From Styela clava (Eukaryota), in NCBI RefSeq assembly GCF_964204865.1, contig NC_135254.1, forward strand, positions 21,382,199 through 21,446,198: 64,000 nt of DNA, given 5' to 3'. This document shows positions 2,204-63,595 of the stretch, piece by piece. The position numbers were made by a program, and so were the translations under genes. Numbering within the stretch: the stretch's first letter is position 1; each line of letters begins with the position of its first letter. The notes beneath the pieces are model-generated. The model ran no database searches, had not been told where the DNA came from, and was given only the letters and a program-made list of their open reading frames with translations.

Positions 2204-2222
2204 TATATATATATATATTTTG
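2204..2222. repeat. (TA)n microsatellite
   Basis: A tatatatatatatatat run is visible in the sequence. Confidence 0.8.
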
Positions 2223-6229: not shown

Positions 6230-6299
6230 GCGTGATTGGAAGTTCCAACGTGTTGGTGCACAAGCTGGGAGACGGCGGCTACATATCTGGCGAAGGAGG

Positions 6300-21735: not shown

Positions 21736-23017
21736 CATTATTACGATACTTGTTACGTTTGTGAGATTACCAGAAGCCTGCCCTGATTGTGAACAGCCGA
21801 TTTGGTGTAAATGATTCAGGGCAGAATGACATGATTATTCGACAGGAACTCATTTTTTACCGTACATTGTATTTAGCAGTTTTTGGGTTGGCATTGATTT
21901 AATGCATTTAGTTGTAGAAGCAGGGTTGAACTAGCTTGGCTGCAAGTTCCTTACCAATGGTTTTACATGGAAACACAGTAACAAGTCTGGCGAGTTCAGT
22001 TTTTTAGATGAATGCTTGATAGATACAAACATTTGGTGTTCATGACAAAATGTATGATGTATTGTTTTGCGCAGGTGGTTCGGGAATAGTGGAATAGGGC
22101 AGTACAAAAAATATGGCCATCTCCGAAGTAAATGCTGACTCATGACACACATAAACAATAAAAAATGAATAAAAAGAATTGACAAAGAAAACATTTTGCT
22201 ATAGGTTAACAATTGATTAGGAATGAAGTTATTTCAAAACTTTCCAGAATATTAAAAAAATCGAAGTGATTAAGATTTAGGAGGCAAAGTATATCATATT
22301 ATTCAAATGACATGGGATGATCTCTTGACGAAATGATTGAATTATAAATTATAATCTAATAACATTCAGTTTGTTCGCATCTATTAAAATCACAACTGAT
22401 TCACTACTATACTGAATTTTACATACTGTAAAATATTTTATAAATGATATTCATTACACTGCTAACAACAATGGAATGATTTAAATGCAATTGCAGTGCC
22501 GATAAAATGATCAAATCTTTTTAACAAAAAATGTGACTTTCTATTTTAAAAACAGATAACTAACTATACAACTTTATGTTTCATTTTGTTTGGTACTGAT
22601 TCCACCCCTACATTTTTCTATGAGCATAGGTATTGCTCATTATGGGGCTGAATAGATTAAAGGTGAGTAAAAATTTAGATTTTTGTTGGTGAGCTGAGTT
22701 TTATATTGGGTATCTGGCTATATCTTCATTTCATTGGCGAATTTGTACAGCCAAATTCAACCAACATTAAAAATGAAAGCTTAAAGCTTTTGAATTGGCA
22801 ACACATGATGGAATTTTGCTTTAGGTTAATAGAATTTTGAAATTTGAATTTATAAGCTTCAAAAATGGCTAATGATCTCATATTTTTCAGGAATTGGAGG
22901 GGAGAAGTATTCAAGCTCTTCCAACAATTAAAAAATCCCCAACCAATCGAAAATGCCTCAGGAATAATAGGTGAGTCATTTACTTTTTGCTCTATTGTTC
23001 GTTATCGTCGGAATTGG

Positions 23018-25912: not shown

Positions 25913-27085
25913 CTAAATAGAGGAAGATTCATCATCACTGTCTGATTCATCTGTTTCATCATTTTGAATGGTGAGACTCTCGTAGAACGTATGGTATTGC
26001 GGTGGAATGAGATTTTTTTTACACAGCTTCATTAAGGCACCATATTTTTCCATTGTAATTCCCGGTTTTTTTTTGTAGCTTCGCCTCATTTCATTCATCC
26101 TGGGTAACATATCCAGGGTTCCTGAAATTCTTCGACTCAACCTCACTTTTTTTATGAATGAAACTTCCTGATATTCTTCTTCTGCATAAAGGTACTTGAA
26201 GAAAAACTTATCAGGTTTTTCACCAGAAAACTTGGCCTGCATGATCTTAGACCATTTGATCTTTGATCCATTCACTTTTAGGTTTGATTTGTAAACGTCT
26301 TGAAACATGGTGAGTTTTTCTCCAAATTTGAAATCCAGGATATCACTATGGGACATTCTAGTCATAGTTATATTTCTATTTTTATTCCCTTTAGTCAATG
26401 CTTGTACGATGACAGATTCCCACTGATCGGTGGTAAAGGTATGCAGCCGTTTTGACTCTTTTTCGATAAGAGAATGTGCACAGTCATTCTCGTTTTGGCT
26501 ATGCCCTGTAACAAAAAAGCTTAACGTTATATCTGAAAATCCAAACCAATTAAGGGCAAGGGATAGCATGATGTATACCATGCGGTTGCAATTTTGTCCT
26601 GCGCATCTGTCACAAAAAAGGTACACACTCTTCACACCCTTTTTTTGTAAAAACTTCAAGTAGAGCAACAGTGCAGACGCCACCTCATTTGAACCCTTTT
26701 TTGCTTCTTCCTCATTCCACAAGTAACAATGAACTTCTTTAAAAGACGAGATGTCCGAAACTGTGAAGTTGTAGTTTCGCAGTCTCATGCTATAGTAAAA
26801 TGAGGAACTCTCTCCTGCAGGTGCCAGGAGTGTTTTTTGAAAGTCAAATGCTGATGCTTGAATATGGCTATTGTCTTGTGCTTTTTCTTTTATTTGTGCT
26901 TTGAACACCCTGCTCAAGTTCTTTTCTTGATCATGTTCTGCCTTTGATTTTACTATTTCGGTAGTTCTCAATGAATCTTTTGTATTGTCCCATGCATCAC
27001 ATATGTCACATCGATCCTTTTTGGGTTGATGAAATTTTATATTAAAATTATCATGAAAAATGGACAAGTAAGCTTCGTATTTCAA
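25913..27085 (-). CDS. transposon ORF 2 (390 aa): putative DDE-type transposase catalytic region (family not recognised)
   Basis: Contains spaced acidic residues in conserved-looking blocks (YLFCDRCAGQN ... FFVTGHSQNENDCAHSLIE) and a C-terminal acidic tail. It does not match hAT motifs. It may be one gene with ORF 1 via frameshift, or a separate one (4-nt overlap). Confidence 0.45.
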   Translation of the reverse strand: MKYEAYLSIFHDNFNIKFHQPKKDRCDICDAWDNTKDSLRTTEIVKSKAEHDQEKNLSRVFKAQIKEKAQDNSHIQASAFDFQKTLLAPAGESSSFYYSMRLRNYNFTVSDISSFKEVHCYLWNEEEAKKGSNEVASALLLYLKFLQKKGVKSVYLFCDRCAGQNCNRMVYIMLSLALNWFGFSDITLSFFVTGHSQNENDCAHSLIEKESKRLHTFTTDQWESVIVQALTKGNKNRNITMTRMSHSDILDFKFGEKLTMFQDVYKSNLKVNGSKIKWSKIMQAKFSGEKPDKFFFKYLYAEEEYQEVSFIKKVRLSRRISGTLDMLPRMNEMRRSYKKKPGITMEKYGALMKLCKKNLIPPQYHTFYESLTIQNDETDESDSDDESSSI

Positions 27086-28536
27086 GGGATTCTCAATGTT
27101 ATTTGAGGCAAATATTGATATTTAGACTCCTTTCGAACATAGTGACTTTGAACTGTCTTAAACATACAAATATGTTCAATTACCTTTTCCACTTTTTTTG
27201 GATCAAATCTGTTATGGGGTACAGTTATACCACGCATATCATTTTCAACACTTCCAATAAATTCTTTTGATAATGCTGTTCTAACTTGTTTTCTTGAAAC
27301 ATCAAGAGTTGTGAGGAAAAATGTCTGACAAACCTCAAACTGATCTCCACTTTCCTTCTGAAGAAAATATTTGAAACTAACATCTCTTTTTTTGCGTCTG
27401 ACTTCAATATCTGGTCTCAATCTGCTTCTTTTAATTTTGCATTTTTCAATCATTTTCGTAATATAAATTCTTTTTGACAATATGTTATCTAATTTCCAAT
27501 AATTTTCAAATAAAACTTCTCTGTCCTTGGCAGAAAATATTTCATTGCACTTTTTTTTACATGAACTAGAACATGTTTTCTTTATTTCTCTTTTAGGCAT
27601 CAATCTAATTTCTTTATTTTTTGTTCTGTATTGGTAAGACTGTCCATGCATTCGAGCTTCCTTCCTAATATTTCTCTGCCACTTGGAGATATTTCTTTTT
27701 CTTTTTCTTTCTGTCAAAGGAGTAGGTGTTATCCAGTCTGTTGAACACTGTTCATTAACCTGATTTTCTGTTTGGTCACAAAGCTTATTTATGTCACACA
27801 GATTCCATGTGATGGCAGTACCTTCCTTGTGTTCTACAAGGTTAAAATATGGCCAATGGATCGCAGTTTGGAACACTTTAGTTATAAAAAAACTTCCTTG
27901 TCTATCCTCACAGTGAACACTTCTACACTTTGCTTTGAATATGGGATATCTTTCATAGCATAGAATTACTTCTTCACTTTCGACGACTGAAATGTCAACC
28001 TGGTGCTGTACTGTGGAATTTGATTTATCACTGTCAGATTCATTGTTTTGAGCCGTCCAATAACATGGCATAGACTGAGACTTTTCCTTCTCATAATTAT
28101 AAGTTGGATCTTTATCTGAATCATCATTATAATATTCAAAAGATTCATCTGATAAATTTTCTTCCTGGTCTTCGTTTTGAGAATTTTGAGCTTCAACAAG
28201 GACAAAATCTTTTTCCTCATCACCGATATCAAGTTTTAAAGCATTTTTTGGAACTGAAGTTGTTTGATTGTCAATAAAAAATTTGACTCGAACAGTGTTG
28301 GAGTAGACGCAAACTATCACTCCTTTTAACAGCGTCTTATCTTTATATGGTAAACTATTACTGTATTCACGCTGTTCATTATCGAAATATGTAGCAGGGA
28401 GATAAACTTCTTTTCCTGTTTGCAGAATCTGACTCTCAGTGCTATCCCAACTTCGTGTGCCACAGGGGAATTCAGATTCAGGACCTAACATTGCTTCACT
28501 GATAAATTGTATATAGCTTTGGGAAAAGTTAAACAT
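27082..28536 (-). CDS. transposon ORF 1 (484 aa): acidic Asp/Glu-rich protein with possible N-terminal Tudor/Agenet-like fold and basic Cys-containing middle region
   Basis: Long uninterrupted ORF inside the nested TIR element. It has an N-terminal W..G..V.A.Y.D....Y.G.I..V......V.F pattern, an acidic low-complexity stretch and basic KRKR/KKK clusters (putative NLS or DNA binding). Its stop overlaps the start of ORF 25913..27085 by 4 nt. Confidence 0.5.
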   Translation of the reverse strand: MFNFSQSYIQFISEAMLGPESEFPCGTRSWDSTESQILQTGKEVYLPATYFDNEQREYSNSLPYKDKTLLKGVIVCVYSNTVRVKFFIDNQTTSVPKNALKLDIGDEEKDFVLVEAQNSQNEDQEENLSDESFEYYNDDSDKDPTYNYEKEKSQSMPCYWTAQNNESDSDKSNSTVQHQVDISVVESEEVILCYERYPIFKAKCRSVHCEDRQGSFFITKVFQTAIHWPYFNLVEHKEGTAITWNLCDINKLCDQTENQVNEQCSTDWITPTPLTERKRKRNISKWQRNIRKEARMHGQSYQYRTKNKEIRLMPKREIKKTCSSSCKKKCNEIFSAKDREVLFENYWKLDNILSKRIYITKMIEKCKIKRSRLRPDIEVRRKKRDVSFKYFLQKESGDQFEVCQTFFLTTLDVSRKQVRTALSKEFIGSVENDMRGITVPHNRFDPKKVEKVIEHICMFKTVQSHYVRKESKYQYLPQITLRIP

Positions 28537-31075: not shown

Positions 31076-31252
31076 ATGGTTCAATCTTTGATATATTTTA
31101 GGAATAAGTTGGTAAACAAAAGCCTTCAGAAAAACATAGAAAACAAGAAAAAAGTTATTGTCCCCAATAAAAGATGGCTTCAACATTTCACTGACAAGGA
31201 TGCGAAGGTTGGTTGCCGAAACTTTAAGACCTTGATTCTAGACATGGGATAA
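31076..31252 (+). CDS. PARP4-like gene A, candidate first coding exon (start of PH-like domain, ...NKRWLQHFTDKDAK)
   Basis: An ATG at 31076 follows an in-frame stop at 31046. The exon ends AAG|GTTGGT (donor). The ...WL.HFTDKD.K end is conserved with gene B exon 43163..43222. Further upstream exons cannot be excluded. Confidence 0.4.
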   Translation: MVQSLIYFRNKLVNKSLQKNIENKKKVIVPNKRWLQHFTDKDAKVGCRNFKTLILDMG

Positions 31253-31570: not shown

Positions 31571-31648
31571 ATAAGGCGACACTTCTGGTGTATAGATGAT
31601 GACTATGTCACACTTTTCTTGACTGAAAGTGAATCACTATTTTTCAAG
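31571..31648 (+). CDS. PARP4-like gene A exon 2 (PH-like domain; IRRHFWCIDDDYVTLFLTESESLFFK)
   Basis: Flanked by acceptor CAG at 31568-70 and donor GT at 31649. It is 78 nt, phase 0. It is 24/26 aa identical to gene B exon 43376..43453, which has the same length and canonical splice sites. Confidence 0.6.
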
Positions 31649-32643: not shown

Positions 32644-32774
32644 AAAATTCTTTTGACGGATATCATGTCAATCAATAAGGGCAAATGTTCTCAATCATTG
32701 AAATATGATTTCAAGTTAACTTTATCAAATTTGACTATTTTTGTCTTTGAGGATTTATCAAAGGATTTTGACAT
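32644..32774 (+). CDS. PARP4-like gene A exon 3 (PH-like domain; KILLTDIMSINKGKCSQSLKYDFKLTLSNLTIFVFEDLSKDFD)
   Basis: Acceptor TTCTTCTCACAG and donor GTGAGT. It is homologous to gene B exon 43703..43824, which is 9 nt shorter and in the same phase. Confidence 0.55.
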
Positions 32775-32909
32775 GTGAGTCTTTAATTGTTGTTGTATTG
32801 TTGGTTTTTAAATTCCTCGTATGTGTTACTATTTGTTAACATTTAGCTGTTATCAGTTGGTAAGTGTAGTTTGTTTCTATTTGAGCCATAACCTTGTCTT
32901 TGCTTCAAG

Positions 32910-32992
32910 GAATCAAGAAAAGCATTGGTATGACATACTGAAACAAGCGCATTCGTCTGCTGTAAATCATGAGAAGATTGCCAATGTGAATG
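32910..32992 (+). CDS. PARP4-like gene A exon 4 (PH-like C-terminal helix; ..EKHWYDILKQAHSSA..)
   Basis: Acceptor CTTCAAG and donor GTAGGC. It is 83 nt, identical in length and phase to gene B exon 44039..44121, and carries the conserved HWY..LK.AHS.AV helix. Confidence 0.55.
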
Positions 32993-33282
32993 GTAGGCAA
33001 TGGGTTTAAATGAACTATTTTATTGCTGTATTTTCATCCCAATGATAATATATATATATTTTATATTGCCAAGATAAAATTGGGAATTGGGTATACTTCA
33101 TAACACTTCAATTATCATTGTATATTGTAGCACAGCTGATGTTTGGTGAATAGAGATATACTTTTTATCTCATGTCAAAATTAAAAATTCACTCATAGTC
33201 TCTATGCTTCTTGCACTTCTATTAATTGGAACATTTTCAATTTAATATTGTTCACCAAACAAGTTTGATTTTGTATTGTCAG

Positions 33283-36200
33283 AAAATGAAAGAGTTCCAA
33301 AGAAGAAAAATATATTTGATAAACTTCAATTCGCCCTTGAACTTGGAGATGCATCATTTGAAACAAAGAAGACTTTACGTGAACAGATAACAAGTCATGG
33401 AGGACAAATCTCATACATATTGACCAGTAATACTGATTTTATAGTTCTTTGCAAGGAATTGATTGCCCAATCTATGCATTCATATAAAATTCGCAAAGCA
33501 GTTGCATTTGGCGTACCTATTGTTAGTGAAGAATTTCTCACAGAATGTGTAGGGAAGAATCAACTTGTCGATTTCATGGATTTTGCTCCGCAGACTGATA
33601 CAATTCACAATTTTTCGTTGGGAAAAATATCATCACAACCCATCAATGTAAAAAAGTTTGTTTCTAAAAAATTGGACCTTGGAAAAATTGTACAATATAA
33701 ATTAGAATCTGGTGACTGTCCTTGTTTTCCAAATAAATATGAAGTTCCCAAATTTTCGATTTTAACAAAAAGTTTTGAAGAGAATGGTGAAATTAATGAA
33801 ATGTGTTGTGTTGAAGCACAGGTTGGTATAACTGCAAATCAGAATAATCAAAAGATGTATAGAGTCATGGTTTCATATAACAATATTAGCACTTGCTCAA
33901 CTCATCACGTGTATCCATTAAATAATTCATTTGAGTTAGTCCAGTGTTATGAAAAACTTGTAACACAGTTCCTTGATGATGGAATGAAACGAGCTATTGG
34001 AATTTCAAAGGATCAATTCTCTGATATTGTTTCACCTTCACTCAACCTTGTTTTAACGGAAATGAAAATTTCATCAGGAATTCTCCATCCTGAAGTCGCA
34101 CGATTAGTCAAAACTATTTGGCTGGATTCGCTAGACGAAATAATGATGACATTTGGTGTCGGGCCATATGGTATTGATGTTGAACAAGTCAGAAATGCAT
34201 TGATTGTTCTGATGCAAATAGAAAAGTCCATCAAAGAGAAAGATTTCAAATCAGCTTTATCTGACAAATTTTACCACTTTATTCCACAGACAGATGATAA
34301 AAAAGAACCAATTGACAGCATTCAAAAAATTGCAAAGAAAAGAGAATTATGTCAGCTTTTAAAAGACATCACTTTAGTGAATGAGACTTCTTGGTTTTCT
34401 AAGGACTGTAATGATTCTTTATCACAATACACCGCATTGAAGTGTGCTATAATGTGGATTGACCCAAAAGAAAAAGAATATAAACTCATCAAAGACACAC
34501 TTCCTGACATCGATGGAAAAACATACAAATTGCAAAATATATTCAGAGTCAGTCGCTCTGTTGAAAACTCGCAGTTTAAATCAGATATTGGCAATACTAA
34601 ACTTCTATTTCATGCATCCCACCCTCATAATTTTGTTGGTATTTTATCGAGAGGTTTAATGTTGCCACTCACACTGTCTAGTGAGTATGGAGTCTCAAGG
34701 AGTGATGAAGGAAACCTTGGCGCTGGAATTTATTTCTCAGATTCATTTTGGATGTCTTCAAAATTTACCGCACGAAGCCAAAGTCGAGGTTCCAGAATAA
34801 TGCTTGTTAGTGAAGTAGCACTGGGAAAAGTATTCAACACAAAGGAACCTATGGCCCATTTATTGGCTGCACCAGTGGGTCACGATAGTGTGAAACGCAC
34901 GCATGCCACAGATGCAGTTAAATCTGATGCTTCAGAATATGCAGTGTATAACAAAAATCAACAGAGGATGTGCTACATCATTGAATTCACAATTGATGAT
35001 GATAGTTTGGTTAATCATGACAAAGTAGTGATACCTTTAAGTTTTAAGATGAATAAGAACACTACCGCTGAAATTGCTGCTGAGCGTGAGAATTTTGAAC
35101 CAAAAGTTGAGGAAGTTAGATATGGCCTGATCATGGAATCAAAAGATATTTCTGCAATATTAGAGGAAGTTCATATCAGAGCAAAAGTTATTGATTTGGT
35201 GTCAGAAGTCACTATTTTTCAGTCGTACATCAATACAACCAATAAAACTGTTGAAGCAAAATATGTTTTTCCTCTCACTGAAAACGCTGCTGTATGTGGA
35301 TTTGAAGCTTTTATAAATGACAAACATGTAATAGGAGAAGTTAAAGAGAAAGAACAAGCCCACAAGGAATATAAAAAAGCAGTAAGCGAAGGTCATGGAG
35401 CTTATTTGATGGATGAAGAGAAATCTAATGTATTTTCTGTTAGTGTTGGTAACATTCCTCCTGCAGCTCGCGTAATCATTAAAATTAGTTATGTTGCTGA
35501 GCTCGAAACTACTAACGAACCTGACAGTAATGTTTTATTTACATTACCAGGAAGCATTGCTCAATGGGAGGAAAAATCTGTGTTGCTTTCAAGTTCTGCT
35601 ACTCAAGAAGTTACGGAATCAACTTCTGTTTCAAATGAGAAAAAATCTTCAGTTATAATATCAATTGATATGCCGTTTGATATTCTCGATATCACTTCAC
35701 CTACTCATAAAATTGTAATGAAAAAGACATCTACAAAGGCTTGTGTAAAACTGCAAAAGTCAATTAACCTGGATGGAAACAATTTTCGTTTGCTGATCAA
35801 AGTAGCTGAAATTCATGTTCCTCGTATTTGGATTGAAAAGGAAAATGAAGAAAGCAAAGATCAAGTGGCAATGGTGACTTTTTTTCCTGAATTTGAATTC
35901 GATGCAGTAGAGAATTTCAATTGCACAGTAATGTTGGATATGTCGAATTCCATGAAAGGATCTGCTGCATGTCATTCTAAGCATTTATGTTCATTGCTTA
36001 TCGAAAATTTGCCAGATCAATGTGATTTTAATGTCATCTCATTTGGGTCATATTTCGAAGAGGTGTTCATTGGATTTGAAAATGTTTCAACTACTTCTAA
36101 AAAACAAGCAAAAGATTTTATTACATGTTGTAAACCATCTTTTGGAGGATCTGATCTTTTTTACATTCTTAATTCAGTCTTCCTACTTCAAAATAATTCA

Positions 36201-39200
36201 TACAATAATGAGTTACATAATATATTCCTCTTTTCTGATGGTCATTTGTCTGAAGAGGAAAGACTTTTCAGGCTTTGTAAGGAAATTTCAAAAACCAGTC
36301 ATTGTCAAACAAGAATTTTTACATTTGCTGTTGGAAATTCACCAGATAACCACACTCTACAGAGTTTATCTATATTAACTGGAGGGTCTCATGAACAATT
36401 CTTATCTTCGTCAAAGAGGACATGGAAAAGACAATTAAGCAATCAACTATTCAATGCTAAACAACCTGCATTAACTGATGTACATATTGATTGGTGCAAC
36501 TATGATAACAAATCCGATGGTTTTCAAGATTCAACTGTTTTGCAGGTTCCAGAAAAAGTAAAATGTGTGTTCAGTGGATCTCAACTTGTCGCATACAGTT
36601 ATGTTCCAAACTGTCTGAAAGCAACTCTTTGTGCTAATATTAATGGAAAAGAGTTCTCTACAATGGTAAATGCGAACGGATTATCAAAAATTACTGGAAT
36701 GACATTGCACAGACTTGCAGCAAAAGCTGTGTTCAAGGAACATGACTGTGGTAGACTTGCTGATGATGCTTTGTGTGATCAGATGTTGAAAGAGGAAAGA
36801 AAGTCAATTATTATTTCAATGAGTATGAAATACTCAGTTGTTTCAAAATATACAAGCTTTGTAGCTATTGAGGAAAGAAAACCTGGAGAAGATTTAAGCA
36901 TAACATGTGGACCATCTCTATCTAATCTTGTTGATGAATCTTTCATTGATATCATTTCTGAAGTAACATGGGGGGCTGAAGAGAAATCTGTGGAAGAAAA
37001 TGTGGATGAACTACTGAAGAAGTCTTTGCAAATTCAATCAAGTTCTATACTGCAATCTCGGGATTTAGCTCTGGAAGCAAAAGCATTGCATAGCACATTG
37101 GAAGAAAAAGATCCACTGAGGAAGTTACGAATATGTGCGACGTTATGTAAATTGGATGTGAACAGCGATCAACTTGATGCATGGCTTGATTTGAAAACCA
37201 TGTTGTTGAAAACTGATAAATCACTGAATTTTGAAGTGATGAACACGATCGCTAAATTTGACAATTCATCGCCCAGACATAATTTGTTGGATATTTTTAG
37301 TAGCTGTTTTCCTGAACACTGTTCAGTCCATCTCCAATCTATTCCTGAAATTTTTCAGCCACTTGCCATTGGAGGATACACTGAAATCTGTCATTTTTAT
37401 GAAACTGTGGGAGAATGTTTTAGAGATTTTCCTCTTTTTTGGGAAGAGTTTCATGATGTTTGTTGTTGTGATGATAAGAGTTATAAGGATGTTTCTTTGG
37501 CATTGAAAGTCTTGATCAGAGAATTGAAGTTTATAAATAAACCTCACAAAAAGAAAAAAAGGTACAAGCCCAAATTATGCCCATTTTCAATAGCCACCCC
37601 ACCATCATCACTACCTAGGCCTCTACAAGCTGTTCCACCACATCTAACACCAATACCAGCAAATTCATCTCTATTTGGATCAGCAAGATCAGGTATTTCA
37701 CCATTACCACCACAGCAATCTTTTCTCTTTGCATCATCTGGTCCTCCGCCACATCCACCACCTGGATCTGACTTTACACCATTACCACCACCATTACCAC
37801 CGAAACCATCTGTATTTGGATCAGCAATTCCACCACCACAACTACTACCTGGATCAGGTATTTCACCATTATCACCACAGCAATCACTTCTATTTGGATC
37901 ATCTGTTCCGCCACCTCCACCACCTGGATATGACTTTCCACTACCACCAAAATCATCTCTATTTGGATCATCTGTTCCCCCACCACAACCACCTCCGCCA
38001 CCTGGATCTGTCTTTCCACCATCACGACATCAACAACCACCAAAATCATCTCTATTTGGATCATCTGTTCCCCCACCACGACCACCTCCGCCACCTGGAT
38101 CTGACTTTCCACCATTACCACCACCACTACCACCAAAATCAGCTCTATTTGGATCATCTGTTCCCCCACCACAACCACCTGGATCTGCCTTTCCCCCATC
38201 ACCACATCGACAACCACCAAAATCATCTCTATTTGGATCATCTGTTCCCCCACCACGACCACCTCCGCCACCACTACCACCAAAATCATCTCTATTTGGA
38301 TCATCTGTTCCCCCACCACGACCACCTCCGCCACCACTACCACCAAAATCATCTCTAGTTGGATTAGATGTTCCCCCACCACGGGCACCTACACCACCTG
38401 GATCTGCCTTTCCACCATCACCACCACAATCATCTTGTTTTGGATCAAGTCCTCCACAACCACCGCTTCCAAAATTTAGATCTGTCATCCTACCACAATT
38501 GCGAAGTTCTGGATTTGTATCAGCCACTCCAATATCGCAACAGTATCAAACTGAATCTGCCATACCACCTCAATATCATTTAAGCAATATAACTTCTTCA
38601 TTTCTTTCGATGACTGACCCACTAGTTCCATCGCAATCTTCAGTCCAATCAGCAGCAGGTTTTTCATTTGGTTTGGCCAGGTCTTTTGCATCGCGAAATT
38701 CAATGCGGTCAGTTGCTTCATTTGGATATTCGTCCACTTCCAGGCAATCAAACACCCCACTACCTACACAAGCTGCGTGCATGGTATCAAATGCTGAACT
38801 CACTTCAGATGATAGTTTTGACACTAAACCATCATATCATCATTCTTCTGAGGTTGCTAGAAGTAATTTTTATGAAGAGTGTGAGGATTCATATTTGTTA
38901 CCAAAAACGAAAAATCTATTATCCAGAAAATCCGAACAATCTCAAGATATTGAAACCAAACAAATTTTTGGTGGAAGATCTAAATTTGACAATTCACATG
39001 AACCACAGGATATTTATGAGAGCTTGGAGGATCTTAAGTCACAACAATTAAAGACCAGTGGAAAAAGAAGAAACCCACCAGTAGTTCTTACAAGGTCTTC
39101 TCAAAGTTGTGAAGTTATGTTTGATTCACTTGAATGTGTTCAGACAGATACATCTACATTAAACTCTGAAAGTTCATCTGATATGTATGAAGATATAATA

Positions 39201-39230
39201 TTGTTAAATCAACATTATGACCTGGTTATG
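33283..39230 (+). CDS. PARP4-like (vault-PARP-like) gene A giant exon: BRCT, PARP helical regulatory domain, PARP catalytic (ART) domain, VIT, vWA, Pro-rich repeat region, Ser-rich tail
   Basis: A 5.9-kb open frame with a splice acceptor (TTGTCAG) at 33276-33282. It has a BRCT-like N-terminus. An HD-like block (..ALSDKFYHFIPQ..) follows. The ART motifs are LLFHASHPHNFVGILSRGL, GAGIYFSDSF, LVSEVALGK and ASEYAVYN, giving an H-Y-E triad. VIT spans KYVFPLTENAAVCGFEAFIND...VIIKISYVAELE, then the vWA MIDAS motif DMSNSM follows. The donor GTAAGT sits at 39231. Confidence 0.85.
37660..38460 (+). repeat. intragenic tandem repeat, about 10 units of 90-96 bp, encoding (K.SSLFGSSVPPP[RQ]PPPPPGSDFPPLPPPLPP)n
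   Basis: Recurrent TCTCTATTTGGATCATCTGTTCCCCCACCAC(G/A)ACCACCTCCGCCACC units are visible. Poly-His, Gly-rich and Val-rich ORFs in the other frames and on the opposite strand are by-products. Confidence 0.85.
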
Positions 39231-39581
39231 GTAAGTTATTTTTATGAACTATTTTACTTGATTACCGATGAATATATCTAGACCTGCCGTGTTACTTCCC
39301 AATTATATCTATCTGCCTGAACTAACGCAGACAATATGCCAGGAATTTAATATTTTATGAAATGTCTGTACTATTTGCAATAATTTGTTGAATGGGTTGA
39401 AGAAATGTAAATTTAGCTTTGTTTTTTGACACAAAAAACACTTCATATTGAGTGTTCATTTCATTATTTGTTTGTTCATTCTTATTTCTATACAAATCGA
39501 TTTATTGATGAGTAAAGCCATCCACATTTATGAAGTAATGCTGAAAGTGCATAAAATTGGTAATTCACATTTTATCAACAG

Positions 39582-40121
39582 ATTGAGGACGAGGATGACG
39601 AATTAGAACAGTCTAGCGGATCCATCAGTGCTGCATGGGATGATGATTCTGAATGCACGGAATATGAGTGGAAAATGGTTAAAGCTATGATGAAACTCCT
39701 TAACCTCACAGTTAGTGAACTAATGGAAATTTTCAAATCTGGATTAAGTCCAGATGGCTTTTGGAAATTTCCTAGCAATGAAGCCATCATGTCTGAAGAG
39801 TTTTCTGAAATTGAAGTTAAACTATTGAAAATTTATCGAGAAATAGTCATTTCTGCTGGTGCGCTATCTTTTGGTAGCAAAGTTTTGTCCACAGTGTTAG
39901 ATATGCTGTATACAGCGATTATCATAAAAATTCTTAAATTTATTAATGAATCAAGTAAAGTGTATGACATGATAAAAGATGCTGAAAACTGGTTGAAATT
40001 AGCTGATGCGAAGCAACCATTTTTATATGAACGGCTAGAGTTAGGATCATCTTGGGAAATGGCTGCAAATGCAGTGATTGTCAAAGTGTCTGAGGCTGTG
40101 CTCAATTCTATCTCTGGTTAG
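39582..40121 (+). CDS. PARP4-like gene A terminal exon (conserved C-terminal module; stop at 40119-40121)
   Basis: Acceptor TTTATCAACAG at 39571-81, in frame with the donor at 39230. The translation IEDEDDELEQ...GFWKFPSNEAI...VISAGALSFGSKVLSTVLDMLYTAII...LELGSSWEMAANAV is about 55% identical to the C-terminus of gene B (GFWRFPDEETI...VISAGAQSLGSQVLSLVTDMLLTAIV...LELGSSWEMAAKLV). Confidence 0.7.
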   Translation: MEDEDDELEQSSGSISAAWDDDSECTEYEWKMVKAMMKLLNLTVSELMEIFKSGLSPDGFWKFPSNEAIMSEEFSEIEVKLLKIYREIVISAGALSFGSKVLSTVLDMLYTAIIIKILKFINESSKVYDMIKDAENWLKLADAKQPFLYERLELGSSWEMAANAVIVKVSEAVLNSISG

Positions 40122-40860: not shown

Positions 40861-42195
40861 ACAGATGACTATTGTCATTTTTGAGAATAATCTATTTTTC
40901 AAAATATTTGATATATTCTAACAAATATGTAAACACAAAATACAGTGAGTAAAAAATGTTGACCTACATTCTATTTATTGCTTATGGCAGAAGAAATCTT
41001 ACAACTATAGTTTCTATTCTCTCAAACTATTCTTTGGGTCAGTTTCTAATATTTTTCTGTGGTCAGTGATTTTGTTAATGTCTGCTAAAGAGTATTAACT
41101 TTTTTGAGATCAGTAACAATGTACAGTTTTGATTTTCACGTTTGATATTGATTTAATTCTTAATTGGTGATAGTGTTATTAGACTATAAGTCATTTTGTA
41201 TTACTCAATTGCTATTCAGTTATTGTTCATTTCTGCGCTTTGATAATTTTTCACTTTTAATTTTATTATTAGCCAAGAGAATACCATGTTATTCTACAGG
41301 TTTTTAAATCCATTTCTATTCTCTTTCTTTAAGATATTCACATATCACTTCTATTCCTCTGTTTTTGTATACAGTTCTCTTTCTCTTGATGATTCTATAG
41401 TCAAGTTCCGGAAATGTTGAATTATATTATTCTTGTGTTCTTTGTGAAATATTATTTGTATCATATATTATATAAAAGTTTCTGTATGCTGTAGTTTATA
41501 CTGTTGTTTGGGAAGTTGAGGTATTCTTTGCTAATTGAGTATTAAACTGCTCAGTCATAAACTTTCTATCATTATGTTTATGAAAAACAAAATTTAATGT
41601 TATTACTTAATATATTTCTTGTTGTGATTTAATTAGTATCTATTACTATTAAAATATTTTATCCATGTTGTTTTGTCTGTAATCAAGTTCCAATTGTTGG
41701 TAATATACTTTGATATTATTTGAAAGTCTGCATTCTTCCATCAAGTTGACCAACAAATTATTTCATTAGAAAAATAACTCCACCTGAGTTGGCTATCTCT
41801 GAATCATGTTTGTGGTATTTAAAAATTTTTTTTCCTGATATTTGCGGGGGATATTAAATGATGATTCTTGTATATTCTAATTGCTGAACCTATTTGTTAT
41901 ATTCAGATTTTTATGTAAAATAATAATATATCAGGAAGGTATTATGGAGTTTGACTATTTATGGAATATTAGCTATCTGATATAGTAACCCGATCTTGCA
42001 TGGCCTTACTTTGTGGATTAATATTAGCCAAGATATAAACTACTGCCTACATCATGGGAATAAATAGATTAGAGGTTAAGTATAAAGTCTTTGTCTTTAA
42101 ATGTTTGAAAACTAGTTTTCTTATGTTTCATTGATAGCAATTATGTTGCATCTTTTTAATTATATAATTTTTAATTTATAATCCGAATTTCTTGA

Positions 42196-42490
42196 GTAAA
42201 TGCTCAGCAGTGTGGCGCATTGAGCTATGCGTTAAATTTACGCTCGTTACCGCACCACTGATTACCCTGTGAACCCAGGTTTGCAGGTTCGAATCCTGTG
42301 GGGAAAAATTATGTAAGAGAGGATTGCTGGATTCCTTCTGGTTCACGGGATCCCATACACGACATGGACTGCGGTTCATGTGATCCCATACTCGACATGG
42401 ACTGGTAACCGGACGAGAGGCCGTGTTTCACTGTGATTAAGCTATCTTATTGGTTTTTCTCTCCCGGGATAAATAAATAAATCTTATCCT
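42196..42490 (+). mobile_element. tRNA-derived SINE copy (intergenic, between the PARP-like genes)
   Basis: The tRNA-like head has GGTTCGAATCC. The body contains ATCCCATAC.CGACATGGACTGGTAACCGGACGAGAGGCCGTG and the tail CCCGGGATAAATAAATAAATCTTATCC. Confidence 0.75.
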
Positions 42491-43162
42491 TAATATGTGA
42501 ATTGTTTGTTTTACAGGACTTTGAAGTGAAAAGTAAGCATATTTGTCATAAACTGAAGAAGAGCAATTGCAGATTGAAGTCTTGTAGTGAAAAAATGTGA
42601 GTCTGATATCCCCAAGAAAATCAAGCTCTAAATTTTTTTTTGATTGAGTGTATTGAAATTGTGGGGCCATTACCGTGTCAATGTTTTCAAGTTATAGTAA
42701 GATACAAAATCATTTGAAGGGTTTAGGATATATTTTAATACCTAATCTCGTCAATTTCCTATTAATATTCGATCGCAAAATGGATATTTTACAACTAAAA
42801 CTATAAGAATTATTATAGTGAATGTGTCATATCATTCTGGTTTGTTTTGTGATTTTAGTGTATGCTGAAAGCTGTGACGACACATTTCTAAACCTACCGT
42901 AATTTGAAACATGGTTATAATAACCTTAAAGTTGCACTTGTGTTTTGAACTGAAAAAATAATTTTCCTATATTATTAGCATCACAAATTTGCCGATTATT
43001 ATTTATCATTGGTTAGCATATCCCTCCACATGGCTATCTGATAGGTGATACTATAATATCGAAAGCACTCTAAAACCAACTTGAATATACTCTTTGTTGT
43101 TGTTTAGGAAAAATCTAGTACTGGATAGTACTGGATCTCTGCAGAACAGACATGAAAAGGAA

Positions 43163-43222
43163 ATGAACCTCATTGATTCTAATAAAGGATGGTTGTATCA
43201 TTTCACAGATAAAGATCCAAAG
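43163..43222 (+). CDS. PARP4-like gene B candidate first coding exon (MNLIDSNKGWLYHFTDKDPK)
   Basis: An ATG at 43163 lies in an open frame. A possible acceptor TTGTTTAG sits at 43099-43106, so this may be an internal exon. Donor AAG|GTTTAT. It is homologous to the end of gene A exon 1. Confidence 0.4.
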
Positions 43223-43375
43223 GTTTATAAATAAGTAATTTCCACCCATGATATTTATATATCGAAGACTAACTGAGAGACTTTGAATTTGTAAACTGAA
43301 TAGGAAGGTATTTCTCAAGACCAGATTTCTAAATATAAATTATACATGATTTTGGAATATTTTATTGATTGTCAG

Positions 43376-43453
43376 GTACGACGACACTTCTGGTGTGTTG
43401 ATGATGAATATGTCACAGTTTTCTTGACAGAAAGTGAATCATTGTTTTTCAAG
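43376..43453 (+). CDS. PARP4-like gene B exon 2 (PH-like; VRRHFWCVDDEYVTVFLTESESLFFK)
   Basis: Acceptor TTGATTGTCAG and donor GTAATG. It is 78 nt, paralogous to 31571..31648. Confidence 0.6.
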
Positions 43454-43702
43454 GTAATGTGGATGAAGTTCATTGTTTAATATTCAGATACATCTGCCAT
43501 ATGTAATCTGAAAAGAAGAATAGGTATCGAATATTTAACATGCTATCTGAAAGTTTAATTAATGCAAATGGTATTTAAAATGAACTGAGAAAATTGGGAA
43601 TGTAATGTAAAGCATTAAAGTAGCATTCTGTTAGTTCTTTCAGTATAAAATAGTATTTTACATTTCATGATAGAGTGATGATATATGTTTTCACCTATTA
43701 AG

Positions 43703-43824
43703 AAAATTTCATTAGCAAGCATCAAATCAATCAAAGAGAGCAAGAAGTCCAAGTGCTTGTTCAAGCTGGTTCTATCCAACATGACTATTTTTGTGACTAG
43801 CAGTGATTCTGAAAAGTATAAAAT
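43703..43824 (+). CDS. PARP4-like gene B exon 3 (PH-like; KISLASIKSIKESKKSKCLFKLVLSNMTIFVTSSDSEKYK)
   Basis: Acceptor CCTATTAAG and donor GTAAGA. Paralogous to 32644..32774. Confidence 0.55.
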
Positions 43825-44038
43825 GTAAGAGTTTATGATTATACCAATCATAATTTTGTTATTGTAAAAATCTAGGATTATTGTGAACATAAAATTACAT
43901 ATTAATTCTACTGATTTGTGAATTTACTTTTTGATAAATAAAATTGTAAAATTTAAAATACCTTAACCGGTGTTTCACTGTGGGATAATATTTTAGATGC
44001 ATTTGATTTTTAAGTTGAAGTATATGATTTTTGTTAAG

Positions 44039-44121
44039 GATTCTGATGAACCATTGGTATAATATGCTTAAAGAGGCCCATTCTGCCGCAGTAAAACGGG
44101 AGAATACTGTGCTACCTCTTG
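44039..44121 (+). CDS. PARP4-like gene B exon 4 (PH-like C-terminal helix; ..NHWYNMLKEAHSAAV..)
   Basis: Acceptor TTTTTGTTAAG and donor GTATGT. It is 83 nt, paralogous to 32910..32992. Confidence 0.55.
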
Positions 44122-44996: not shown

Positions 44997-45073
44997 ATTT
45001 AGACAACACTAATCCCAGTTGCAAAAAAAAAACAGTTCTTAGGGATCATTTTTTACCTATTTGTTGTTTTCAG

Positions 45074-48000
45074 AACAAAAAAAACTCTCAAAACATGGAA
45101 GCATTTTCAAGAAACTTCAGTTTTCTCTGGAACTAGGGGATACGACGTATGAAGCAAAGAAACATTTGCGTGAACAGATCACTAGTAATGGAGGACAAAT
45201 TTCCTATATTTTAAATGGAAATACTGATTATCTGATTGTGTGTGAGAGAAAAACTTCCACATCGAGTAAGTCCTACAAAATTCACAAGGCAAGAGAACTA
45301 GGAATACCCATTGTGAGAGAGATCTTCATAACAGAATGTATTGAAAACGATAAAATTGTTGATTTTCTGGATTACGTTCATGGAAAACCAATTGTTGAGA
45401 GTTATTCTGCTGGGAAAATATTGGTTTCTAAGGCAAAGCCGAAGGAGCCTTCTGAAAGATTCGAAGTAGAAAAAGTCATTAAATATAAAGTTGATGCTGG
45501 AGACTGCCCTGTTTTTCCAGATAATTTCCAAGTAGCCAAATACTCTATTCTCGCAAAAATTACTGAAGAAAGAACACCAAATGATATGTATTGTGTTGAA
45601 ACACAGGTTGGGTTACACGATAACTGCAAAACAATATTTCGCGTCATGGTTTCCTATAAAAATGTCAGTGGTGTATCATTTTGTCATGTTTATCCTGTGC
45701 AAACTTCATCAGAGGTGGTTCAGTGTTATGAGTCCTTGGTAAAGCAGTTTATCGCTGATGGATTCAAGAAAGTCATTGGAATTCCTGGCGATGGGTTCTC
45801 TGGAATTGCTTCTGCTCCACTGAGTTTGCTTTTAAATGAAATGAAAATTTCATCTGGAATTATTCATCCCGAGGTCGCTCGATTGGTAGAATCTGCGTGG
45901 TTAGAATCTCTTTGTGAAATAATGACAAATTTTGGTGTTGAACCTTTTACTATACATCATGAACAAATTAGGAATGCAATGATTGTTCTGATGCAGATAG
46001 AAAATTCAATCAAAAGAAAAAGTTTTAAATTGGAATTATCAAATAAGTTTTACCAGTTTATTCCCCAAAGAGATGGTAGGAAGGAACTGATAGACAACAT
46101 GCAAAAGATCGCAAAAATGAGGGAATTATGCCAGCTTTTGAAAGACATAACCTTGTCCAATGAAACTTCTTGGATTTCTAAAGACTTCAATGATCGCCTG
46201 TCACAATATACCGCATTGAAGTGTGCTATAATGTGGATTGACTCGAAAGAAAAAGAATATAAACTCATCAAAGACTTACTTCCTGATAATATCGATGGAA
46301 AAGGATACAAAGTACAAAATATATTCAGAGTCAGTCGCTCTGTTGAAAACTCGCAGTTTAAATCAGATATTGGCAATACTAAACTTCTATTTCATGCATC
46401 CCATCCTCACAATTTTGTTGGTATTTTATCGAGAGGTTTAATGTTGCCACTCACACTGTCTAGTGAGTATGGAGTCTCAAGAAGTGATGAAGGAAACCTT
46501 GGCGCTGGAATTTATTTCTCAGATTCATTTGAAATGTCTTTGAAGTTTACAGCTCGAAGCCAAAGTCGTGGTTCCAGAATAATGCTTGTTAATGAAGTAG
46601 CACTGGGAAAAGTATTTTATACAAAGAATCCCATGACTGATTTGATAGTCGCGCCAGAAGGCCATCATAGTGTAAAAGGTACAGGTCTAACAAAATTTGA
46701 TGATGTTGACGACATTGCATCTCATGCTTCAGAATACGCGATATATGATGCAAGGCAACAGAAGTTACGCTACCTTATTGAATTTACAACGACTGATGAC
46801 ATCATGACTATTTATGACAGAGTTCCAGTCCATTTACCTTTTAAACAAAAAGAGGATAAGCAGGTGAATGAAACAGTGGGTGATAATGAGAATTTTGAAC
46901 CAAAAGTTGAGGAAGTTAGATATGGCCTGATCATGGAATCAAAAGATATTTCTGCAATATTAGAGGAAGTTCATATCAGAGCAAAAGTTATTGATTTGGT
47001 GTCAGAAGTCACTATTTTTCAGTCTTACATCAATATGACCAATAAAACTGTTGAAGCAAAATATGTTTTTCCTCTCACTGAAAACGCCGCTGTATGTGGA
47101 TTTGAGGCTTTTATAAATGACAAACATGTAATAGGAGAAGTCAAAGAGAAAGAACAAGCTCAAAAGGAATATAAAAAAGCAGTAAGCGAAGGTCATGGAG
47201 CTTATTTGATGGATGAAGAGAAACCTAATGTATTTTCTGTTAGTGTTGGTAACATTCCTCCTGCAGCTCGCGTAATCATTAAAATTAGTTATGTTGCTGA
47301 GCTCGAAACTACTAACGAACCCGACAGTAATGTTTTGTTTACATTACCAGGAAGCATTGCTCAATGGGAGGAAAAATCTGTGTTGCTTTCAAGTTCTGCT
47401 ACTCAAGAAGTTACGGAATCAACTTCTGTTTCAAATGAGAAAAAATCTTCAGTTATAATATCAATTGATATGCCGTTTGATATTCTGGATATTACTTCAC
47501 CTACTCATAAAATTGTGACGAAAAAGACATCTACGAAGGCTTGTGTAAAACTGCAAAAGTCAATTCACCTGGATGGAAATAATTTTCATTTGCTGATCAA
47601 AGTAGCTGAAATTCATGTTCCTCGTATTTGGATTGAAAAAGAAAATGAAGAAAGCAAAGATCAAGTTGCAATGGTGACTTTTTTTCCTGAATTTGAATTT
47701 GATGCAGTAGAGAATTTCAATTGCACTGTAATGCTGGATATGTCGAATTCCATGGAAGGATCTGCGGCATCCCATTCCAAGCATTTGTGTTCATTGCTGA
47801 TCGACAATTTGCCAGATCAATGTGATTTTAATGTCATCTCATTTGGGTCATATTTCGAAGAGACGTTCATTAGATATGAAAATGCTTCGACTACTTCTAA
47901 AAAACAAGCAAAAGATTTTATTACATGTTGTACACCATCTTTTGGAGGATCCGATCTTTTTTACATTCTCAATTCAGTATTCCTACTTCAAAATAATTCA

Positions 48001-50802
48001 TACAATAATGAGTTACATAATATATTCCTCTTTTCTGATGGTCATTTGTCTGAAGAGGAAAGACTGCTTGGGCTTTGTAAGGAAATTTCAAAAACCAGTC
48101 ATTGTCAAACAAGAATTTTTACATTTGCTGTTGGAAATTCACCAGATAATCACACTCTACAGAGTTTATCTATATTAACTGGAGGTTCACATGAACAATT
48201 CTTATCTTCATCAAAGAGGACATGGAAAAGACAATTAAACAATCAACTATTCAATGCTAAACAACCTGCATTAACTGATGTACATATTGATTGGTGCAAC
48301 TATGATAAGGAATTCGATGGTTTTCAAGATCCAACTGTTTTGCAGGTTCCAGAAAAAGTAAAATGTTTGTTCAGTGGATCTCAACTTGTCGCATACAGTT
48401 ATGTTCCAAACTGTCTAAAAGCAACTCTGAGTGCTAATATTAATGGAAAAGAGTTTTCTACAATGGTAAATGCAAACGAATTATGCAAAATCACTGGAAT
48501 GACATTGCACAGACTTGCAGCAAAAGCTGTGTTCAAGGAACATGACTGTGGTAGACTTGCTGATGATGCTTTGTGTGATCAGATGTTGAAAGAGGAAAGA
48601 AAGTCAATTATTATTTCATTGAGTGTTAAATACTCGGTTGTTTCAAAATATACAAGCTTTGTTGCTATTGAGAAAAGAAAACCTGGAGAAGATTTAAGCA
48701 TAACATGTGGACCATCTCTGTCTGATCTTGTTGATGAATCTTTTATTGATATCATTTCTGAAGTAACATGGGGGGCTGAAGAGAAGTCTGTGGAAGAAAA
48801 TGTAGATGAACTACTGAAGAAGTCCTTGCAAATGCAATCAAGTTCTATACTGCAATCTCGGAATTTAGTTCTGGAAGCAAAAGCATTGCATAGCACATTG
48901 GAAGAAAAAGATCCCCTGAGGAAATTACGAATTTTTGCAACTTTATGTAAATTGAATGTGTTCGAGGATAATTTCAATGGATGGACTGAAATGAAGAATT
49001 TGTTGTTGACAAGAGGCAAAGTGTTGAATTTTGATGTGATAAATGCTATCACAAATGCTGAGGATTTGACTTTCCTACAAGATTTGTTTGTTGTATTCAA
49101 GAGTTGTTTTCCTGAACACTGGACAATCCAACTTAGTTCTGTTCCAAAAAAGTTTCAAGCACTTTCTGTTGGCGCTTTTTCCGAAATTGTTGGTTTTTGT
49201 GAAGATTTTCCAGACTGTTTTGAAAAGGTCTCCATATTCTGGGAAAAGTTTCGCAAGATCTCATGCCATGATGAAAAGGCAGATAAATATCTTTATTTTA
49301 AAACAAAAGAATTGATCAGAACATTCAAATCTTCCATTCTCCCGCTGCAACTATCAGATATATCTGAATATATTGAAAAAGAGAAGACTGTCGTTGGGAG
49401 ACTGTGTGCAAAATCAAGGCGTAGTTCTTTCCTGCACAGGCCTCATAAAACTTCTTTGATGTCTGAATCAAGTGCTAAAAAATCATCTGCACCAAAAGTA
49501 CATTCTGATCAAACAGATCATTTCGGGGGTATTCCCACTGGAGTTGAAGGCACTGTTAGCGATGATATAAATAGGAATGTTGGTAAAGCTGTTATTTTTT
49601 CTCCACAGTCTCCATTGAAAACAGTTTCCGTTCGACGATCGAGATCTATGAAGAAGAGAGTTATTAGTAAATACACTCCAATGCGTAATGATTCAGAACT
49701 TAGTCCTACATCACCAGTTATCAGTGAGAAAGCACAATCTTCAGCTTTCCACAATATTTCTTTAAAGTCAGCTCAGTTTAAAGTTCAGCGAAGACCAATT
49801 GCATCTATAGATGACTGCTTGTGTCTGCCAGATGTGACTCAGACATCTTTTCAAGACCTCCATCATGACCTAAAATTGTTATCCAATTATGATGATCTTT
49901 TGTCTGCTGCTTCAAAGTCTGACGATGCACAGCAACAACTTAATTATGAAGACTTCTTTTCAGATCCATGTACTCAAGAAATTGAAAGTATCAGTGTGAG
50001 TGAATTTTATGGATTTCCAAGTCAGTTAGAGGTAAAAACGGACTCCATTGGAGTGTTGGAAAAAGAAGAATTAAAATCATCGTATAGTGAAACGATGCAA
50101 TCCTCAAAATCTAGTTCTAATGGTAGCTGGTTATCTAGGTGCGATGATGAACATAAACAAGTTAATAATGTTTCACATGGAGTTCGTTATGTACCGGATT
50201 ATTTATCTGAAGAGATGGAACCAGACGAAAATGAAGAATATTTTGAAGATTTTCTTTCTCCAATAAGCACAAGTTCGTTTTGTGATACATTTTATACTGA
50301 TCTTGAGCATGATAAATATGCCGATGCATCCAACATTCTCGGAACAATAATGAAACGATTTAATCTCTCTGAGAGTAAATTAGTGGATGGTCTTGAACAT
50401 TGTGCAACACTTGGTGGATTTTGGAGGTTTCCAGATGAAGAAACAATTTCTTCTAATGAGCTATCTCCAGCTGAATATCAAATGCTTTCATTATTTCGCA
50501 ATGTTGTAATCTCGGCAGGTGCTCAATCTCTTGGCAGTCAAGTTTTATCATTAGTCACAGACATGTTGTTAACTGCAATTGTTTTGGAAATTCTTAAGCT
50601 TGTCGACGATGGAAATAACATGATTGTGAAGAATATGCTTGAGCGTGGCAAAAAATGGTTAAAATATGTCGATACATTAAACCCATCTCTGTATAAACGA
50701 CTTGAATTAGGTTCGTCTTGGGAAATGGCAGCAAAGTTGGTGATCAATCAATTATCTGAGAAGCTGCTGGAAGTAACAGATATAGCAATGCAGTCCAAAT
50801 AG
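45074..50802 (+). CDS. PARP4-like (vault-PARP-like) gene B giant terminal exon: BRCT, PARP HD, PARP catalytic, VIT, vWA, long Ser-rich divergent region, conserved C-terminal module; stop at 50800-50802
   Basis: A 5.7-kb open frame follows the acceptor TTGTTGTTTTCAG at 45061-45073. It has the same ordered domain motifs as gene A (LLFHASHPHNFVGILSRGL, GAGIYFSDSF, LVNEVALGK, ASEYAIYD, VIT block, DMSNSM). It lacks the Pro-rich repeat array and the 3' intron of gene A. Confidence 0.85.
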
Positions 50803-53074: not shown

Positions 53075-53454
53075 ACTGTACCGGTACATGTCTAAACCAA
53101 CAAGATGAAAAACGTTTTAGGGTTTTAAGACTAAAGCAAATACGTCATGATTTGCAAACACTGCGTATATATATTTTATCTTCAATAAATTCAATACACG
53201 TTCTTGATTGAAGTTCTGTGAAGTTATTTGCAGAATATGACGAGGGGTTGCTTTCCCGTGGAAATTTGTCCATAATCTAAGAACAAAACGTCAAATTAAT
53301 AAAAGGTAGACGAGTTAGATCATTTTGGCCGACCATTCAGCGTTCAACGTTGCGGAGTAGTGGCACCTTACGCCACACGACCCATTCAAAAAATTACGGT
53401 AGGCCTAGAGTTACCAGTAGTCTACTGGAAACCAAATTAAAACAGTTAGAATAG

Positions 53455-53770
53455 GATTTACCTATTTATCCCGGGGGAGAGGAAAGAAGGCTTATCCATA
53501 TGGCAAACCACAGCCTTTCGTCCGGTTACCATTCCAAGTCGGGTATGGGATTAGTTATATTGTTTTGTTTTCGGAAGCATGGACTTGGTGGTGGAGGAAG
53601 CCGTAACCGACGAGCGGTTACGTGAACCACCCAACGACGGCGAGGAGTCCAGCAATCCTCTCGCACATAACCATCCCTGCATGGGATTCGAACCTGCGAA
53701 CCCACGCAGAGTAATTAGAGGTGCGGTGGCGAGCGTATTACTAACGTTTAGCCACACCGCCGCGCCGTTA
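53455..53770 (-). mobile_element. tRNA-derived SINE copy (inverted)
   Basis: Its reverse complement matches the other copies from GCGGCGGTGTGGCT through GGTTCGAATCCCATGCAGGGATGG to the tail CCCGGGATAAATAGGTAAATCCTATTC. Confidence 0.75.
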
Positions 53771-62713: not shown

Positions 62714-63595
62714 TTAGTAGTTAATACAGTTTGCAACTGCACGTTTTGCTTTAAACTGAGATGAGAAAACATTAAGTCTATAGATATCAAAATCTTTGCC
62801 AGAACAGTCAGCTTTGAAGGCGATGGTGCGATGCACAGAGCATCCCTTCATCTCCTTCTGCACTTCTAAAATTACTTCATCATTCTGTTCAGACTTTACT
62901 AGTGGAGGAACAAATTTTCCTTCACACCACAAAAACTCTGGCCCGTTCAACCACCTACAACCAGCATTTAGCTGGTCTGCTTGCAAGCCTCGACTCGCAT
63001 CATCACTTGGGTTTGCCTCGGTAGGTACATGATGCCAGGATGATGGACTAGAAAAATTATGGATAGTTTGCACCCTATTAGCCACAAAAACATTGAAACG
63101 TTCGCTCTCATTTTGTATATACCCCAATACCACCATACTATCGACCCAGAAAAACTCTGTGGCGTTTTTCAATTTTAGTTCAGTTTTAACCAAATTACTT
63201 ATTCTGGCAGACACCACTACTGCAGTTATTTCCAACCTGGGAATTGTACCATGTTTCAACGGAGCAACTCTGGCCTTACCAATTACAAGGGCACAATGTG
63301 CTTTGCCACAATCATTAACCAGACGTAAGTATGTACACTGGCCATAACCACTTTCAGAGGCATCAGAAAAGTGATGCAGTTCCACATGCTTGACATTACC
63401 AAAATTTACCGGCTTATAGCAACGATCTACTTTCAAATTCACCAAATGACAAAGATCCCTTTGCCATTTTTCCCATTTAACCCTGAAAATCTCAGGAATG
63501 GGTTCGTCCCAGTCATAACAATCCTTGCACAAGGCTTGGAGGATTTTCTTACCCTCGAGAATGGCTGGCAGCGAAATAAACCAGCACTCGAACAC
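62714..63595 (-). pseudogene. RNase H / connection domain of BEL/Pao pol
   Basis: DASESGYG...Y.R motif and BEL-characteristic downstream block. Confidence 0.6.

Follow-up and report, generated by a model that had tools for sequence, protein, structure and literature searches.

The window analysed here, a 64-kb stretch of the genome of the ascidian Styela clava, contains two tandem PARP4-like genes, A and B. Each is dominated by one long open reading frame (ORF), 33276..39281 in gene A and 45061..50802 in gene B, and the translated ORFs share 76% identity across their first ~1420 residues. The Pfam domain order is the same in both: BRCT, PARP regulatory, PARP catalytic, VIT, and vWA. Among solved structures, the closest match is full-length human PARP4 (E=7e-189). 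Searching 1.84 billion representative proteins with a profile, together with cluster look-ups, identified the gene A product as RefSeq XP_077968685.1 (P0080, 2328 aa) and the gene B product as XP_039269916.2 (P0009, 1951 aa). Both genes are on one 24.9-Mb chromosome record. The features of the pair, numbered from the first letter of the window, are as follows.

22642-22662, + strand: further first exon of gene A (exact P0080 peptide match).
31100-31207, 31571-31648, 32644-32775, and 32911-32991, + strand: small upstream coding exons of gene A (exact P0080 peptide matches, boundaries accurate within 2 nt).
33283..39230, + strand: giant coding exon of gene A, encoding the BRCT domain, the two PARP domains (regulatory and catalytic), VIT, vWA, and an extended, disordered tail rich in proline; its acceptor is ...tgtcag before AAAATG and its 3' end is a donor site.
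38903-38907, + strand: A5 homopolymer run in gene A as read in the window sequence (A4 in an older S. clava assembly).
39231..39581, + strand: gene A intron, phase 0, GT-AG, 351 nt (GTAAGT ... TTTATCAACAG).
39582..40121, + strand: terminal coding exon of gene A, 179 codons and a TAG stop at 40119-40121.
39690..40100, + strand: core of the gene A MINT-like domain, module residues about 37-173 (HMM match to P0080 2186-2322).
42054-44120, + strand: gene B exons homologous to the small upstream exons of gene A.
45074..50802, + strand: giant terminal exon of gene B, running from BRCT through the MINT-like domain unbroken (ORF and RefSeq mapping).
50350..50766, + strand: core of the gene B MINT-like domain, in the same exon as the rest (HMM match to P0009 1802-1940).

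The small upstream exons of both genes encode about 165 extra N-terminal residues ahead of the BRCT domain. This extension appears PH-like by eye and has no Pfam match. Unlike genes A and B, the ORF of the outgroup contig L001, described below, has its ATG directly at the BRCT domain. The first intron of gene A is ~8.4 kb long and has transposon-like ORFs at 25913-28536 (- strand), one of them with a DUF7869 match. Transposon remnants also lie around the PARP4 pair, at 5345-7253, 9973-10557, and 62714-63595 (all - strand), and their types are a hAT dimerisation domain with DUF4371, a reverse transcriptase fragment, and a Pao/BEL retrotransposon peptidase. Segments of ~100 nt at 42239-42490, 5' of gene B, match 53448-53737, 3' of it, in inverted orientation at ~75% identity (n=2). 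These are probably copies of a dispersed repeat.

The divergence between A and B is a mosaic. When 33283-37400 is compared with 45074-49200, differences at four-fold-degenerate sites are 0.5-0.6 in the first ~300 codons and only 0.02-0.2 over codons ~350-1250, which encode the PARP catalytic, VIT, and vWA domains. This pattern indicates a long and fairly recent gene-conversion tract within an old duplication. Farther along gene A, tandem DNA repeats at 37938-38398 with periods of 63, 93, and 177 encode proline-rich 'PPKSSLFGSSVPPP(R/Q)PPPPP' units, which carry FG-like motifs and give a weak Nucleoporin_FG match in Pfam. The number of repeat copies differs between the window and older gene A protein models, and gene B has none. 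FG-type motifs are also found in the PARP4 tails of Ciona and the outgroup.

The feature of interest is at the 3' end of the pair. In gene A the coding sequence reaches ATG at 39230 and is followed by GTAAGT from 39231; the acceptor, ...TTTATCAACAG, ends at 39581 and the next exon starts with ATT at 39582. An initial reading made from the letters of the window had placed a 351-bp phase-0 intron with this donor and acceptor, and its coordinates are exact in the window sequence. The intron is in phase 0 because 39230-33276+1 = 5955 = 3x1985. GTAAGT at 39231 is the sole consensus-like donor near the end of the ORF, and the acceptor at 39581 is the first AG past the last in-frame stop. Alternative GT/AG splice sites near these boundaries were rejected, their context being poor or their phase wrong. 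The intron holds 10 in-frame stops, the first a TAG at 39279 and the last a TAA at 39561, and neither AATAAA nor ATTAAA is found inside it. Its GC content is 0.288 versus 0.40 and 0.37 in the flanking exons. The length of 351 nt is a multiple of three, which occurs 1 in 3 times by chance. If the frame is read unspliced it does run into a stop, as the initial reading had it, although only 16 residues are added (VSYFYELFYLITDEYI) and not 17. The GTAAGT donor, the AACAG acceptor, and a joined ORF that runs into a conserved domain are those of a U2-type GT-AG intron. Judged by these signals, gene A has an ordinary U2-type GT-AG intron at 39231..39581, and the same region of gene B is continuous.

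The public annotation agrees. Residues 165-2150 of P0080 map to 33276-39233 and residues 2150-2328 to 39582-40118, at 99.8-100% identity, with the intron as the only interruption in that stretch; RefSeq therefore uses the predicted junction exactly. The proposed restoration of the frame into 39582..40121 is borne out in XP_077968685.1, which reads ...LLNQHYDLVM IEDEDDELEQ... across the junction. Likewise, residues 43-1951 of P0009 map continuously to 45073-50799 at 100% identity, in line with the claim that gene B reaches the same module without a break: there is a single ORF, and the XP_039269916.2 model is contiguous. RefSeq thus models A as spliced and B as continuous, and the structural difference between the genes is already in the public annotation, XP_077968685.1 being an automated RefSeq model. 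Older models of gene A are different. XP_039269914.1 and XP_039269915.1 (P0013 and P0081) end in ...LLPKRKIYYPEN...SHNN, a tail obtained by reading this DNA in the +1 frame from window position 38903 onward. With A4 in place of A5 in the older assembly, these models therefore stop before the intron and have no C-terminal module. The A4 run may reflect an assembly mistake in a homopolymer or a genuine allele without the MINT domain. The finding is mainly an annotation check: the current NCBI model of gene A is consistent with the sequence, and the older tail-less model is traced to a single-base homopolymer difference.

What does the terminal exon encode? Its product consists of an acidic linker and a MINT-like domain. 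In BLASTP the 179-aa translation of 39582..40118 matches residues 1759-1903 of gene B far better than chance would allow (E=3e-39, with 46% of 145 aligned residues identical), which upholds the homology claimed for the two C-termini. Between the vWA region and this module no alignment of the A and B tails was found, and the sequence-only reading was also right that constraint on the tails is obvious only in the module. Over the module A and B differ with pN 0.33 and pS 0.66, giving a pN/pS of about 0.5 and a dN/dS of about 0.27. By these codon comparisons the C-terminal module is under purifying selection.

The same reading had suggested, by analogy with PARP4, that the module might be a docking domain, and had proposed aligning it with the regions of PARP4 that interact with the major vault protein (MVP). 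In human PARP4 the MVP-interaction (MINT) domain comprises residues ~1562-1724; it is Pfam PF26156, PARP4_MVP-ID, and is represented by structures 9bw6, 9bw7, and 11jf. A profile built solely from the A and B modules matched just 8 proteins at E<1e-3 out of 1.84 billion: the gene B RefSeq protein, a 1899-aa PARP4 (P0002), a Phallusia sequence named PARP4, and five short proteins. All 8 matches are at or near the C-terminus of the protein. When a nine-sequence MINT profile, comprising A, B, and 7 non-vertebrate relatives with vertebrates left out, was run against the PDB, the sole match was human PARP4 at residues 1568-1704 of 1724 (E=7.3e-16). With a local HMM, matches of 38-90 bits were obtained in the last ~130 aa of about 50 PARP4s from metazoans and Capsaspora. 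In each Styela protein the module occupies the last ~140 residues of a BRCT-PARP-VIT-vWA protein.

Structural comparison gives a similar picture. The AlphaFold (AF2) model of the gene A module has a pLDDT of 82.4 and 8 helices, and its top Foldseek match in the PDB is 9bw6_B, the human vault cage-PARP4 structure (E=6.9e-3, prob 1.00, TM 0.48/0.61). The match is moderate rather than tight; the runner-up has E=0.16, more than 20-fold worse. The profile, HMM, and Foldseek results indicate that the resemblance to the PARP4 docking domain is one of real homology. On this combined sequence and model evidence the module is a divergent but genuine homologue of the PARP4 MINT domain and not a mere analogue.

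How divergent is it? A 2025 cryo-EM study of vault-PARP4 names S1614, K1618, Q1682, and R1689 as MVP-contacting residues of human PARP4 (PMC12280208). The equivalents are S, K, K, and R in gene A, S, Q, L, and R in gene B, and S, R, N, and T in the outgroup protein P0002; two of the four named contacts are thus unlike human in gene B. S1614 is invariant in the sequences compared, and the other three positions vary across invertebrates. Gene A keeps 6 of the 6 columns that are invariant in the nine-sequence MINT alignment, and it retains the widely conserved positions W1586, S1614, G1616, G1693, and W1696. The Pfam scan gave no match for the A or B module, nor for a mammalian PARP4 C-terminus, and PF26156 seems to be absent from the Pfam copy scanned. 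In precomputed Pfam lists PF26156 is present in many PARP4s and missing for the gene B protein. Tunicate PARP4 tails carrying this divergent MINT domain, which goes unflagged by Pfam, are candidates for vault association.

The MINT-like domain is also found at the end of short non-PARP4 eukaryotic proteins (P0003 and P0005-P0008). P0003 combines it with a WH2 actin-binding motif and P0006 with a G-patch. From these arrangements it follows that the vault-docking module may, in some eukaryotes, be a portable tag of other cargo proteins. Some of the short proteins could be gene-call fragments.

Is the terminal exon truly part of the gene A product? Gene A might instead mostly end at the 39279 stop or earlier, with 39582..40121 left as a remnant of the ancestral C-terminus that is decaying or seldom used. 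The older RefSeq models, which end upstream of the terminal exon through the frameshift at the A-run 38903-38907, fit such a state of affairs; the current RefSeq model includes the exon. A 312-aa peptide spanning the junction likewise had no match in an index of 5.8 billion proteins; a full-length query later found both the A and B proteins, so this null result reflects a limitation of the index. From the acceptor the reading frame runs without a stop for exactly 179 codons and ends where proteins of the family normally end, the invariant and widely conserved MINT positions are intact in gene A, and the pN/pS and dN/dS values of the module likewise speak against decay. The donor and acceptor are strong, and the intron has no poly(A) hexamer. 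We therefore consider a relic exon highly improbable.

If the exon belongs to gene A, then either gene A gained an intron or gene B lost one. Polarity was judged with one outgroup, a 7985-bp contig from SRR10746997 (L001) in which a single ORF (333-6032), complete from ATG to stop and including MINT, encodes P0002. On the minus strand of this contig are two beta-galactosidase domain fragments in different frames, with ~135 nt between them, GTATGT...AAG. The contig is genomic and not a spliced transcript because this beta-galactosidase-like neighbour retains its GTATGT...AG intron. Identities were compared in regions without gene-conversion homogenisation. In the N-terminal 300 residues A and B are 52% identical versus 41% to P0002, and in the MINT domain 45% versus 37%. 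Since A and B are closer to one another than to P0002, the latter is a valid outgroup to the duplication.

Intron positions in other PARP4 genes provide a second line of evidence. Exon junctions were mapped in Trichoplax sp. H2 (L003), the teleost Neosynchiropus (L004), and the annelid Owenia (L005). These three have two MINT introns in common, one in phase 0 right before [DE]G[FY]W and one in phase 1 within SL|G, and both are missing from A, B, and L001. The gene A intron is in phase 0 and lies 52 codons 5' of DGFW. The variable introns upstream in Trichoplax, the fish, and the annelid are in phases 1, 2, and 1 and lie 20, 24, and 37 codons from DGFW. In Ciona PARP4, the stretch that is a single exon in Styela is divided among about 30 exons. 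Ciona was rejected as an outgroup for the MINT region: no MINT is detectable in its model, in the gene, or in 3 kb downstream, so the locus is uninformative on the intron position. The annotated C. intestinalis PARP4 (L002; 2188 aa, ~30 exons) has no MINT domain at its end, and the Phallusia PARP4 fragment has one.

Neither the paralogue nor the outgroup genomic DNA has the gene A intron, and it does not sit at an ancestral position, as expected of a lineage-specific gain and with polarity resting on that one outgroup. These comparisons favour gain in A over loss in B, though not decisively. Could the intron instead be ancestral to A and B, retained in A and lost independently in gene B and in the outgroup lineage, for instance by cDNA-mediated conversion? 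This lineage has been efficient at removing introns, given about 30 exons in Ciona versus one giant exon in Styela. Metazoan PARP4s do have some intron 20-37 codons upstream of DGFW, and the linker has diverged too far for positional homology to be judged exactly. However, two losses are needed versus one gain, the genomic outgroup ORF is unbroken, and the upstream introns of Trichoplax, fish, and annelid differ from that of gene A in phase and in distance. Reverse transcriptase (RT)-mediated intron loss is 3'-biased, and a lone surviving 3'-most intron is not what such loss would be expected to leave. We regard an ancestral intron as unlikely.

The preferred reading is that of two tandem PARP4 paralogues in which the intron of A was newly gained ahead of the MINT docking domain, and from the sequence comparisons we hold this to be probable. 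The fuller order of events (loss of the ancestral body introns, then duplication, then one new intron in gene A) is put forward with slightly more reserve, as rather likely. In the ancestral stolidobranch PARP4 the introns from BRCT to the stop would already have gone, probably through 3'-biased cDNA-mediated loss. That the 5' exons kept their introns while the BRCT-to-stop portion lost them fits such a mechanism. The A/B duplication would have come next, and gene A would then have acquired an intron in the acidic linker just 5' of MINT. The A/B pair and its intron-free outgroup form a fairly clean candidate for intron gain at a domain boundary, and this candidate case could be used in studies of intron turnover in tunicates.

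Where might the intron sequence have come from? One suggestion is an inserted mobile element, introner or MITE-like, that brought or made the splice sites. In agreement with this, the intron is AT-rich and non-coding and shows no vestige of earlier coding sequence, transposon remnants are abundant in the window, and weak inverted matches of 11-13 nt (I8 and I9) are present near the intron ends. But there is no second copy of the intron within the 64-kb window, neither a target-site duplication nor convincing terminal inverted repeats were found at the intron, and the short AT-rich matches are no better than chance. An inserted element is on balance very unlikely. There is no duplicated AGGT either, because exon 1 ends in ATG and exon 2 starts with ATT. 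Intronised old coding sequence was rejected as well: blastx of the intron against a three-sequence database of the A, B, and outgroup tails gave no significant match, the best E being 0.08. Repeats, copies within the window, and coding remnants, when checked, identified no source or mechanism for the gene A intron.

In human PARP4 the MINT domain anchors the enzyme to the inside of the vault shell, at MVP repeats 3-5. In gene A, splicing would join ...HYDLVM to IEDEDD..., and the predicted protein so joined carries the C-terminal helical domain. The spliced gene A protein and the gene B protein would, we infer, dock inside vaults via MINT, as human PARP4 does. With the intron retained, the protein would stop 16 residues on, without the docking domain. 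A search for homologues of human MVP returned only vertebrates among the best 120 matches listed, and a literature search found nothing on MVP in Styela or other tunicates. Tunicates are among the closest invertebrate kin of the vertebrates, and it is there that the tails are of interest as candidates for vault association.

Might the young intron then act as a switch? The spliced product would be docked in vaults, the product of intron retention or of the A4 allele would be a free PARP4 without MINT, and the paralogues would split these roles. Were this true, vault-bound and vault-free roles would be divided between A and B. We think this quite unlikely. In sum, the feature is an ordinary annotated intron before a known, though divergent, domain. 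Neither the divergent MINT nor the intron gain alters current understanding.

Like the human MINT domain, the Styela modules are C-terminal in a BRCT-PARP-VIT-vWA protein, and the gene A module is predicted to have a helical fold. The motifs DGFW, AG.xSLG, xAT, and W...P.l..RLELG..W are common to the Styela modules and human MINT. Among the contact residues, both genes keep S1614 and R1689 of human PARP4; K1618 is kept in gene A and replaced by Q in gene B, and Q1682 is conserved in neither. Identity between the Styela modules and vertebrate MINT is ~20-25%, and the vertebrate insert at 1645-1664 is absent in Styela.

The canonical PARP4 genes of Ciona, Trichoplax, Neosynchiropus, and Owenia encode the same protein architecture, with MINT at the 3' end in Trichoplax, the fish, and the annelid. 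Whereas canonical metazoan PARP4 genes are intron-rich, Styela A and B and L001 each have one giant exon, and A alone has an intron at a new position. For the gene A intron no duplicated AGGT, no transposon hallmarks, and, within the window, no homology to another locus were found. It does resemble known intron gains after duplication in being present in one paralogue only and absent from the outgroup, at a non-ancestral position, with GT-AG ends and an AT-rich, non-coding sequence.
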